Part shown: positions 11,937 to 13,556 of the stretch, in pieces
Layout: every line of letters starts with the position of its first letter
Numbering within the stretch: the first letter of the stretch is position 1
Virus record (IMG/VR): IMGVR_UViG_2778261568_000008
Span: 1 to 33,324 of that record
DNA from: a virus
Taxonomy: Duplodnaviria; Heunggongvirae; Uroviricota; Caudoviricetes
Length of the DNA: 33,324 bases
Reading direction: 5' to 3' (one strand)
Notes under the pieces: model-generated
What the model saw: the letters and a program-made list of their open reading frames with translations, nothing else
Databases searched by the model: none
Told to the model about the DNA's origin: nothing
Made by a program: the position numbers and the translations under genes

Positions 11937-12116
11937 ATGAAAAAAGAAGACTGTGGGTTTATCTCGGTTACCAACTCAATCAACGAGGTAAAAAACCTGT
12001 TCGTGGGAAATGCAATCCCGCAAGAGGGTGAGGTTCTTGAGCTGGTGGTCATCAAAAGCGAAACCACCGATGACTCATGTGCATTGGTGCTCAAATTGAG
12101 CTCAGTTCAAAAATAA
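11937..12116 (+). CDS. Small hypothetical protein (59 aa)
   Basis: ATG ORF upstream of the protease gene; weak RBS. Not in the ORF track. Confidence 0.25.
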
Positions 12117-12228
12117 AACGAGCTGATTGATGCGTTGAATATTTTGCGTGTGAATTGATGTATCTCATTAATTAAACTGGTGGATGAATCCATTATGAAT
12201 TTTCACTCACCGGTATCGGAGAAAATCG

Positions 12229-12969
12229 ATGCATCAAACTTTAGCCAACGCAACGTTTCAGGTCATTGCAGGTGATTCTCGTGGTAGTGGGTTCAGCTTC
12301 ATGCGAGAAGATCTGGTCGTAACCAATTTGCATGTTGTCGCCACCTGCTGTGACTTGCAGAACCTGCGTCAAATTAATCATGTCATCCTTCAAACTGAAG
12401 TTAATGAGCATATCGAAGCTCAAATATTGCACATTGATGGTGACAACGACTTTGCGATTATGCGGTTGCAATCACAGCTTCCTGCCGGGAGAACAGTCCT
12501 TCAACCATCTGCTGGGTTTGCTCCATCCAGGGGCAGAAAAGTAATTTTTGCAGGATACCCGCATGGGATACCTCTGTTACTAACAAGTGAGGCAATTATT
12601 TCAGCACCGATGGAGCATGGCCGATTTACGCTTGATGGAATGGTTAATGGGGGGAACTCAGGAGGACCTATTATTGATCGAGATTCGGGAGAGTTAGTAG
12701 GTATCGTCACCCAGCGTAGATATATAATGGGCGATCAGGCTGATGCTTTCAGCCAAGAAATAGCCCAACTGCGACAATATCTTTCTTCAGCAAGTCAGCA
12801 TGGAAGTGTTGAGATCATGGGTGTTAATTTCGGGCAAATGGCGGACATGTTTGGTAGATCGCTACAGATTGTTTCGGACATGATGTCGCAGAATGCTAAC
12901 TCCGGAATTGGTATTGGATTTTCAATCCAGCCCATCGTTGATGTGATCACATCTTTCCCTACGAAATAA
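12229..12969 (+). CDS. Trypsin-like (chymotrypsin-fold) serine protease, no signal peptide
   Basis: Catalytic triad context: His in TNLHVVATC, Asp in DFAIMRL, Ser in GGNSGGPIID; GGAG RBS; AT-rich surroundings. Confidence 0.85.
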   Translation: MHQTLANATFQVIAGDSRGSGFSFMREDLVVTNLHVVATCCDLQNLRQINHVILQTEVNEHIEAQILHIDGDNDFAIMRLQSQLPAGRTVLQPSAGFAPSRGRKVIFAGYPHGIPLLLTSEAIISAPMEHGRFTLDGMVNGGNSGGPIIDRDSGELVGIVTQRRYIMGDQADAFSQEIAQLRQYLSSASQHGSVEIMGVNFGQMADMFGRSLQIVSDMMSQNANSGIGIGFSIQPIVDVITSFPTK

Positions 12970-13002
12970 ACATTCGTTGTATAAGATTTTATACATGATA
13001 TG

Positions 13003-13028
13003 GCCACGCATATGTGTGGCTTTTTATT
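13003..13028 (+). terminator. Rho-independent terminator after the protease gene
   Basis: GCCAC / GTGGC stem, 8-nt loop, then TTTTTATT. Confidence 0.55.
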
Positions 13029-13132
13029 GCCATCACAAAAGCCATTCCCTACAGAGTGGCTTTGATAATGGCTTATACCCTACACGGGATAACTTAACTG
13101 ATATCCCTTTTAACGGATAAACGGAGCCAACA

Positions 13133-13375
13133 ATGGCAGAGATTATTCCCATGACTGAAGAACAGAAATTCCAGTTAGAGATTTACAAGCTGGTCATGAA
13201 CCAGAACGCAGCCGCAGAAGAAGCATTTCAATTCATCGGCACTGACGAGTTGAAGCTTGAGCTATTCAAAATTCACTTCCAGTCAGGTGGCGCTAATTCA
13301 GATATCACGACCCGAACTATCGAAGCGGTGCGTAAATCGAAGGAAGCGTTAGACCTGTTCACTACCGGAGCATGA
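13133..13375 (+). CDS. Hypothetical protein (80 aa)
   Basis: GGAG RBS; coding-like composition. Confidence 0.5.
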   Translation: MAEIIPMTEEQKFQLEIYKLVMNQNAAAEEAFQFIGTDELKLELFKIHFQSGGANSDITTRTIEAVRKSKEALDLFTTGA

Positions 13376-13376
13376 T

Positions 13377-13556
13377 GTGAGCCGCGTAATCAATTTGGGT
13401 AAGGAGAAGAAATTCCCAATTACTCAAGAGCTATACGAGCGGCTGGAAATCGTTATCCATGATTACGATGGTGAAATCAGTTTATGCGAGGCGATTGGCA
13501 CACTCGAATTGCTGAAGCAGTCACTGATTGAAGGCGCGAAAGAGTCCTCAACCTGA
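13377..13556 (+). CDS. Hypothetical protein (59 aa, GTG start coupled to the previous stop)
   Basis: GTG 2 nt after the preceding stop with GGAG upstream. Not in the ORF track. Confidence 0.35.
   Translation: MSRVINLGKEKKFPITQELYERLEIVIHDYDGEISLCEAIGTLELLKQSLIEGAKESST

Follow-up and report, generated by a model that had tools for sequence, protein, structure and literature searches.

A mobile prophage cassette encoding a predicted cytoplasmic trypsin-like protease at the lysis-packaging boundary of lambdoid phages, a candidate conflict effector

Lit, a cytoplasmic zinc metalloprotease encoded by prophage e14, stays latent until a phage late protein activates it, and it then cuts an essential host factor. 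Trypsin-like proteases also take part in bacterial immunity. In retron type XI (a reverse transcriptase [RT]-protease), Avs1, Lamassu (the LmuA-protease), and the Hachiman pairs, cytoplasmic trypsin-like domains without a PDZ domain sit fused or adjacent to a reverse transcriptase, a STAND NTPase, HamA, or LmuA plus a metallo-beta-lactamase (MBL)-fold nuclease. Trypsin-like domains of this kind serve as immune effectors or activators, and nuclease-protease pairs have been described (PMC12799240). Bacterial immune systems are known to use proteases as fused effector or activator domains. No HtrA-like protease that is free-standing, cytoplasmic, and PDZ-less and that travels as swappable prophage cargo has yet been characterized. 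Here we describe a candidate for such a protease. It is encoded in a 33,324-nucleotide (nt) stretch of viral DNA (IMG/VR record IMGVR_UViG_2778261568_000008, positions 1 to 33,324; here called the window), in the slot between the spanin genes and the small terminase gene of a P22-like Escherichia coli prophage. The gene belongs to a mobile cassette, and its product may protect the lysogen against other phages.

The 246-amino-acid (aa) product scored above the Pfam cut-offs for PF13365 (Trypsin_2; 73.6 bits, cut-off of 27.6) and PF00089 (32.3 bits, cut-off of 20.6). In an alignment of 32 family members, two residues of the catalytic triad His35/Asp74/Ser144 were invariant (Asp74 and Ser144, the latter within GNSGGP), and His35 was present in at least 90%. 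The AlphaFold model built from this alignment (mean predicted local distance difference test [pLDDT] score of 85.5) folds into a chymotrypsin-type double beta-barrel. All three of the S1/Trypsin_2 (PA clan) features that we tested, namely, the profile score, the His-Asp-Ser order with GxSGG, and the double barrel, were therefore found. The N terminus is hydrophilic, and a simple hydropathy test (not SignalP) gave a 19-residue maximum of 1.24 and revealed no hydrophobic segment or signal peptide. A domain profile search found no match to a PDZ domain, and the protein stops 14 residues past the last barrel strand. A Shine-Dalgarno sequence, GGAG, lies 7 nt 5' of the ATG. An earlier note on this DNA, made by reading the sequence, had described a chymotrypsin-fold protease with an intact triad, no signal peptide, and its own ribosome-binding site and terminator, and each of these features was borne out. 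Sequence and model together show a protein predicted to be a soluble, cytoplasmic, and catalytically competent serine protease with an HtrA/DegS-like fold and without a PDZ domain or an export signal.

The HtrA/DegS/DegP/Deg proteases (MEROPS S1C) share this fold. They differ from the window's protein, which has no PDZ domain, signal peptide, or membrane anchor in its 246 aa, is borne by phages or other mobile genetic elements (MGEs), and is predicted to be cytoplasmic. The scores also fell far below the curated NCBIfam cut-offs for HtrA proteins (DegP/HtrA, 48.6 versus 416.2 bits; DegS, 25.7 versus 423; MarP, 59.5 versus 250). In place of what we take to be the short L2 loop of HtrA, the protease has an insert of ~55 residues (~165 to 222), modeled as a two-helix hairpin (H168-190/H201-222), which separates the strand that follows the catalytic Ser from the final GIGIGF strand. 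The family hallmarks are an invariant N terminus (MHQxLAxATF), an invariant catalytic core, and the motifs RGxKxIFxGYPHG and NANSGIGIGF; residues 38 to 73 and 94 to 100 form hypervariable loops. A homologue search returned 301 proteins, nearly all of 241 to 254 aa and labeled merely "S1 family peptidase" or "trypsin-like." This family of ~245 aa is unnamed and has no dedicated family model. One Photobacterium member (P0111; locus L127, 8001 to 8819; L numbers denote the 139 loci fetched for comparison) carries a SEC-C zinc-binding motif (PF02810) fused at the C terminus of the protease.

How does the locus compare with the morons of lambdoid phages (lambda bor and lom, HK97 gp15), as conceived by Juhala and Hendrix? 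The window represents an HK620/CUS-3/phiv205-1-type P22-like phage, with ~96% nucleotide identity across the replication, lysis, packaging, and head modules. When it was compared with the fetched loci by local BLAST, the site of phage Kapi1 that matches the cassette (Table 1) was empty except for ~9 nt. A wider block, 11591 to 13121, had a 99.5% identical counterpart in E. coli EC11, where a lambda-type prophage with a Nu1/GpA terminase carries it within otherwise unrelated surroundings, and the same cassette recurred at 99.5% identity across P22-type, lambda-type (Nu1/GpA), and DUF1441-type prophages. The unit comprises a 3' remnant of an o-spanin gene, an upstream gene encoding a protein of 59 aa, a 112-nt leader, the protease gene, and a terminator. 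With morons it shares presence or absence at a given site, base composition, and a terminator of its own. The region has a GC content of 44.1%, compared with 50.6 to 50.9% in both flanks, so the AT richness ascribed to it in the earlier note is real but only modest.

That note had drawn a moron from 11937 to 13556 that took in small open reading frames (ORFs) on both sides of the protease. The four ORFs (59, 246, 80, and 59 aa) are all present between Rz and the small terminase gene. Because of the breakpoints against Kapi1 and the EC11 prophage, however, the upstream 59-aa ORF lies inside the mobile unit and the two downstream ORFs lie outside it, and the boundaries have to be redrawn to 11738 to 13053 (against Kapi1) or 11591 to 13121 (against the lambda-type prophages). 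The profile searches identified the protease as Trypsin_2, the 80-aa product as DUF2560, and the downstream 59-aa product as phrog_3546; the upstream 59-aa product had no match. Both downstream genes belong to the P22-like backbone: they occur without the protease in Kapi1 (where the hkbN-type gene is Kapi1_045, with 97% nucleotide identity), HK620, Sf6, epsilon34, and many further phages. The protease itself behaves as cargo, as had been supposed. It is present or absent among near-identical phages, moves between prophage types at 99.5% identity, and occurs as a single gene in islands. These data show that positions 11738 to 13053 are a mobile, moron-like accessory cassette in a recombination hotspot of an HK620-type P22-like prophage.

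The same comparisons bear on whether the protease could act in virion morphogenesis, as a prohead maturation or scaffold-processing enzyme. Its gene does immediately precede the packaging and head genes. The gene comes before that of the terminase, however, and is outside the portal-scaffold-coat block; it is missing from viable phages that are otherwise ~96% identical (HK620, Kapi1, and CUS-3); and the cassette is also found in lambda-type prophages with unrelated head modules, with relatives in nonphage islands. P22-like heads assemble and mature without a protease. The protein matched no prohead protease family in Pfam or PHROG. A role in morphogenesis, already judged unlikely in the earlier note, is effectively refuted, in keeping with an HK620/CUS-3-type P22-like phage.

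The left part of the cassette (11789 to 11905) matches the 3' end of a foreign o-spanin gene, which indicates that the cassette was imported with a piece of the donor phage's lysis cassette. This o-spanin gene is intact in L037 (5433 to 5678), where its 81-aa product has a lipoprotein signal and its stop codon precedes the small ORF by 30 nt. Other phages hold other cargo in this slot, including Rha, KilA-N, GIY-YIG, and Gp49-family genes and annotated anti-CRISPRs (phage Huey), and Kapi1's own cargo sits at the position of junction hairpin 1. The two junction hairpins of the window are alike and have a common repeat, GTGG(G/C)(C/T)TTGATAATG. The RNA fold of 11525 to 11585 around hairpin 1 had a free energy of -20.8 kcal/mol (z score, -3.65), and that of 12995 to 13085 around hairpin 2 had a z score of -5.4. 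A direct repeat, GTGGGCTTGATAATG, found at 11554 recurs at 13056, and in 24 of the 139 fetched loci the cassette terminator is followed by the motif TTATTGCCATCAC, which in L050 is found 5' of the small ORF. Imperfect hairpins of a similar type, with the core ...CAAAGCC...GGCTTTGATAATGG..., were also seen at 5463 to 5500 of L050, at ~6797 to 6840 of L037, and elsewhere. Possibly, the junction hairpins and repeats are sequences at which cassettes recombine between unrelated lambdoid phages, or they are elements for RNA processing or stability.

Table 1. Features of the protease cassette and its neighbors (window coordinates)
Feature	Position	Strand	Remarks
Rz	10912-11379		PF03245, 2e-31
50-aa ORF	11367-11519		Overlaps the end of Rz
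Junction hairpin 1	11532-11569	+	TCATTAcaAAGCC...GGCTTgaTAATGA; left edge of variable slot
Cassette as insertion versus phage Kapi1	11738-13053	+	1316 bp; local BLAST breakpoints versus L001 (Kapi1), L002, and L003
Foreign-type o-spanin 3' remnant	11789-11905	+	Homologous to the end of the intact L037 o-spanin
59-aa ORF	11937-12116	+	Cassette companion gene
Protease leader	12117-12228	+	112 nt, between 59-aa gene and protease
246-aa protease gene	12229-12969	+	Trypsin_2
Intrinsic terminator	13002-13028	+	GC-rich hairpin 13002-13021, GGCCACGC-ATAT-GTGTGGCT, then TTTTAT
Junction hairpin 2	13029-13072	+	GCCATCAcaAAAGCCA...TGGCTTTgaTAATGGC; directly 3' of terminator; inverted repeat I2
80-aa DUF2560 gene	13133-13375	+	P22-like backbone, HK620 hkbM; PF10834 (1e-43), phrog_571
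59-aa hkbN-type gene	13377-13556	+	Backbone; phrog_3546 (3e-42)
Sf6-type small terminase	13574-14002		PF20901, 8e-45; large terminase next

The gene upstream of the protease encodes an acidic protein (pI 4.65). Substitutions in it fall mostly at third codon positions, and we therefore regard it as a real coding gene. We found 51 close relatives of the protein, all in Enterobacterales and none of them annotated, and an exhaustive profile search of 1.84 billion proteins returned 8 cluster representatives, all from this same small family. The protein matched nothing in Pfam (E ≤ 10), NCBIfam, or PADLOC. Its structural model is weak (pLDDT of 67) and consists of a short helix and a beta-hairpin; no nuclease, DNA-binding, or hydrophobic feature was found. 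The label "30S ribosomal protein S1" that UniRef gives to one relative was rejected as unsupported. Trypco and other trypsin-associated partner domains were rejected as well, as neither the 59-aa protein nor the products of small genes that precede distant protease family members gave a Pfam match at E ≤ 10.

Do the two genes form a functional pair, with the small protein as an inhibitor (antitoxin), an adaptor, or a pro-effector or substrate of the protease? Of the 29 enterobacterial viral loci L028 to L056, 25 have the small gene ~115 nt 5' of the protease. Wherever the exact 59-aa protein is encoded, the protease comes next at a fixed spacing, and the divergent small-protein relatives P0175 and P0177 also precede a protease of 246 to 251 aa in other phage types. 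The small gene is under purifying selection, and the order of an upstream partner followed by a trypsin-like protease recalls the nuclease-protease pairs (PMC12799240). The analogues of such a pair would be toxin-antitoxin modules and the pairs of upstream proenzyme and downstream protease in Hachiman, AVAST, and Lamassu. However, the two genes are separable both ways: the protease occurs without the small ORF in L004 (where the same leader is kept), L036, L045, L053 to L055, and all nonenterobacterial members, and L136 and L138 have the small ORF but no protease, with homology ending 16 nt past the stop codon of that ORF. The divergence of the two genes is uncoupled too, with 97% nucleotide and 60% aa identity in L042 and 67% nucleotide and 93% aa identity in L030. 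This uncoupling argues against a coevolving toxin-antitoxin or proenzyme-protease pair and sets the locus apart from type II toxin-antitoxin systems, which are obligate coevolving units. The likeness to the defense proteases in gene order is superficial: the proenzyme pairs of Hachiman, AVAST, Lamassu, and DRT have an MBL-fold nuclease upstream, whereas the 59-aa protein here is without a domain match and, as noted above, without a nuclease, DNA-binding, or hydrophobic feature. We consider a two-gene pair very unlikely. The 59-aa gene is the usual upstream companion of the protease and is not obligate.

The leader between the two genes is more conserved than either of the coding regions that flank it, and in L004 it is kept even though the small ORF is missing. 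It contains a local hairpin, AATTGATG...CATTAATT (AATTGATG/CATCAATT), three TGAATT repeats (within 12117 to 12240), and a 10-bp near-palindrome, ATGAATCCAT (ATGAATTCAT in most loci). A predicted long-range helix of 12127 to 12138 with 12226 to 12237 masks the start codon, and the leader fold had a z score of -3.5 against shuffled controls. RNAalifold retained the leader helices; most of their pairs do not vary or change only to G-U, and a single pair is compensatory (1 pair; covariation term, -0.57). The predicted leader element may be a translational control element or an operator. A leader peptide in the spacer (upstream ORF MNFHS...) was rejected, as its ATG is lost in L043 and 1-nt indels break its frame in L034 and L056. 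A search for known RNA families in the cassette gave only two sub-threshold chance matches.

At the other end of the gene, a strict hairpin followed by a T run lies within 100 nt of the protease stop codon in 15 of 27 distinct loci, compared with 3% of random windows, and at least 4 further loci have the same hairpin with one mismatch or bulge (15 to 19 of 27 overall). The stem sequences vary among loci (GGCCACGC..., AGCTGCCAT..., AAGGCCTCGC..., GAGCCACCGG...), which indicates that the terminator structure itself is selected. In lambdoid phages, Q-modified RNA polymerase passes through terminators. A terminator inside the late operon is therefore relevant only to transcription that is not antiterminated, and such a terminator is the classical argument for expression of a moron from the prophage. 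A weak site, (G/C)TGAAT-17-TAnnCT, is positionally conserved in 6 of 11 loci, including L004, and its -10 element ends 50 nt before the protease ATG. If this promoter is real, its transcripts would lack the 5' arm of the masking helix and read-through late transcripts would keep it, and the outcome would be translation of the protease specifically in the lysogen. Another candidate promoter, TTGACA at 11811, was rejected; it is confined to the window's clade (also L029 and L049) and has poor -10 partners.

We favor, with a probability of about 0.4, a reading in which the protease is a conflict effector that protects the lysogen through abortive infection or superinfection exclusion. This reading is based on the conflict-gene-like distribution of the family, the autonomy of the gene, protease-domain matches to defense proteins, and the selected terminator. 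The protease would be produced at a low level in the lysogen and would be latent in the manner of HtrA proteases. The inserted hairpin, for which a role is suggested by its position alone, and the hypervariable loops would serve as a sensor or lid. Once a component of an infecting phage is bound, the active site would become ordered, and the activated protease would cut a phage protein or an essential host protein, so that the infection is halted. The terminator would stop prophage-state transcription from entering the packaging genes, and the AUG-masking leader helix may curb translation of read-through late transcripts. The mechanism would be that of Lit, a likeness that is conceptual only, as the sequences and folds are unrelated. 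It is also conceivable that the cassette is a new single-gene defense system, with the hairpin at the HtrA L2 loop position as its sensor and an RNA leader that tells lysogenic from late transcripts.

The distribution of the cassette bears on this reading. It was found in 25 of 5,426 complete E. coli genomes and was chromosomal in every case. Many IMG/VR prophage-derived contigs carry a homologue of the protease, and none was found in 50,697 isolated phage genomes (tblastn, E ≤ 1e-10; megablast was also blank). In Enterobacterales, the protease gene invariably has the lysis genes (with or without Rha) on one side and the small terminase gene on the other, in the orientation of the late genes, and at least five packaging types host it (Sf6/GP3-type P22-like, lambda Nu1/GpA, DUF1441/GpA, Terminase_2, and HNH plus Terminase_4). 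Beyond Enterobacterales, full-length relatives of 35 to 50% identity are scattered over many phyla, with taxa that include Salinisphaera, Deferribacteraceae, Arcobacteraceae, Acidithiobacillus, Pirellulales, Bacteroides, Lysinibacillus, and Anaerolineae. A haloarchaeal plasmid of Salinigranum rubrum (NZ_CP026312.1, 25827 to 26522) encodes a homologue with 37% identity over 94% of the protease; the family therefore spans the bacteria-archaea boundary on mobile DNA.

These distant members are single genes without a conserved partner. One is inserted on its own directly after nadD, amid housekeeping operons. Others, for example, lie in an island with a serine recombinase, in an integrase/AlpA island at smpB together with DUF499, HD, and DUF4258 genes, or beside an HNH_5 gene and insertion sequence (IS) remnants. 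Immediately downstream of the Photobacterium member lies a DUF2971 gene that matches the PADLOC candidate PDC-S31 (8e-56). Among 132 neighbors of 17 distant loci, we found type I restriction-modification (R-M) systems (2 loci), TIR-domain proteins (2 loci), and tyrosine integrases (3 loci), along with transposases, a type IV secretion system (T4SS) coupling protein, and housekeeping genes. The rare, patchy, and MGE- or defense-associated spread of the family is suggestive of a conflict gene, with these gene counts taken without a genome-wide baseline.

Two further observations concern other genes around family members. In the Deferribacteraceae-type integrase island (L129 to L132), two conserved small genes lie ~800 and ~320 nt 5' of the protease (for example, 4511 to 4861 and 4991 to 5224 of L130) and encode a 116-aa protein without a domain match and a 77-aa zinc-ribbon protein. 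They are unrelated to the enterobacterial 59-aa protein and may be lineage-specific partners of the protease. In addition, lambda-type prophages with the identical cassette carry a second, unrelated protease as cargo, a 331-aa SDH-family Clp-fold serine proteinase (PF01972), encoded on the opposite strand between the Q antiterminator and holin genes (L003, 563 to 1558, minus strand; further at ~1195 to 2211, minus strand, in L107, L108, L110, L111, L113, and L115).

Could the protease instead be one of the genes that run general proteolysis, such as a cytoplasmic quality-control or regulatory protease that alters host fitness by lysogenic conversion, outside any phage conflict? Its nearest relatives by sequence and fold are the HtrA/Deg quality-control proteases, the member directly after nadD stands amid housekeeping operons, and a PADLOC search found no specific defense signature. 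Yet the protein is without the PDZ domain and the periplasmic location that define HtrA quality control, a rare, patchy, and MGE-borne spread is atypical of housekeeping genes, and the conserved terminator and tight leader suggest that expression is tightly limited. We judge this explanation quite unlikely.

Several points weigh against a conflict effector that guards the lysogen. The best PADLOC matches (4e-15 to 1e-3) were to the protease domains of retron type XI, Avs1, and Lamassu proteins and hold at the domain level only. PADLOC contained no full-length match to a known defense system, and identity with a known system was therefore rejected. Of the partner components that define the protease-containing systems in PADLOC (retron type XI, Avs1, Lamassu-protease, and PDC-M35), such as an RT and noncoding RNA, a STAND NTPase, or LmuB/SMC, none was found in or beside the cassette. 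In the literature searched, we found no paper on this protein, its RefSeq accessions, the cassette, or an equivalent system. Several distant members lie among housekeeping genes, and the association with defense neighborhoods is one without a baseline. A sigma-70 promoter, too, was missing from the scans of the cassette: the consensus scan gave 0 matches, and the weight-matrix scan gave nothing over the shuffle median. Of the promoter that defines a moron, only the weak site described above is seen, with no scan match above chance. The idea of an autonomous unit under native upstream control, to which the earlier note points, is weakened by the undetectable sigma-70 promoter and by the placement in the late operon. 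In donor-type phages (L037), the cassette follows the o-spanin stop codon by 30 nt, and it is always co-oriented with the late operon. Because of this placement, expression may perhaps occur only late in lytic growth. Finally, the same slot holds anti-defense cargo (an Acb2/Tad1-hairpin protein and annotated anti-CRISPRs), which makes counter-defense a live rival.

In this rival, the protease is a late-expressed accessory or counter-defense enzyme that aids the lytic cycle of its own phage; its gene would share the Q-antiterminated late promoter with the lysis and packaging genes. For example, the protease could cut sensors or effectors of host immunity that respond to late proteins such as terminase, portal, or capsid, or it could condition the cell otherwise. 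The constant position, with the spanins just before the gene, the terminase next, and the orientation of the late operon in at least five packaging types, fits this proposal, as do the 30-nt gap to the o-spanin in L037 and the absence of a promoter detected by the consensus or weight-matrix scan. The slot also supplies company of that kind. Phage Huey has annotated anti-CRISPR genes there, and in L139 the next gene after the protease (5356 to 5616) encodes an Acb2/Tad1 hairpin domain (PF24729), which belongs to a sponge family directed against CBASS and Thoeris. Over its first ~51 nt, that region shares 88% identity with the beginning of the small-ORF variant P0177, a hint that the cassettes have start sequences in common. 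The hypervariable surface loops, moreover, would fit an arms race with host targets.

Other observations are hard to reconcile with a late gene. Distant members stand alone in chromosomes or islands with no phage late operon around them, a selected terminator right after the gene is difficult to explain if the gene is purely late, read-through transcripts would have their AUG masked by the predicted leader helix, and none of the 50,697 isolated phage genomes contains a family member. According to a 2025 review, cleavage of immune proteins by viral proteases is unknown in phage-bacteria systems, so that this function would be without precedent (PMC12409349). On balance, we regard a late accessory or counter-defense protease as possible but doubtful. 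Its more specific form, in which the protease is a nonstructural late counter-immunity enzyme, the phage counterpart of the cleavage of innate-immune sensors by picornavirus 3C and coronavirus 3CL, lying in an anti-defense hotspot beside sponge proteins and anti-CRISPRs, appears unlikely.

Elsewhere in the window, the 50-aa ORF at the end of Rz is conserved; both its Kapi1 version (Kapi1_042) and the one in E. coli prophages (WP_001139681) are annotated as a "hypothetical protein." The last ~6 kb (27000 to 33324) have a GC content of 0.41 to 0.45, below that of the head and packaging region (~0.50), and a 393-aa ORF on the minus strand (32143 to 33324) runs to the window end. In this part, the prophage probably has its tailspike, O-antigen modification, or integration end.

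The junction hairpins, the single terminator per cassette, and the imported spanin fragments illustrate how cargo is exchanged at the lysis-packaging boundary among unrelated lambdoid types. The cassette is short (1.3 to 1.5 kb), is natural in E. coli, and has an obvious catalytically dead control, so the question of its function is directly testable. A protease in the service of the phage would be the first factor described in phages that evades immunity by proteolysis. If, as we favor, its role is defense of the lysogen, the protease would combine sensor and effector in one minimal protein, and its insert in the activation loop would represent a new regulatory solution for HtrA biology.

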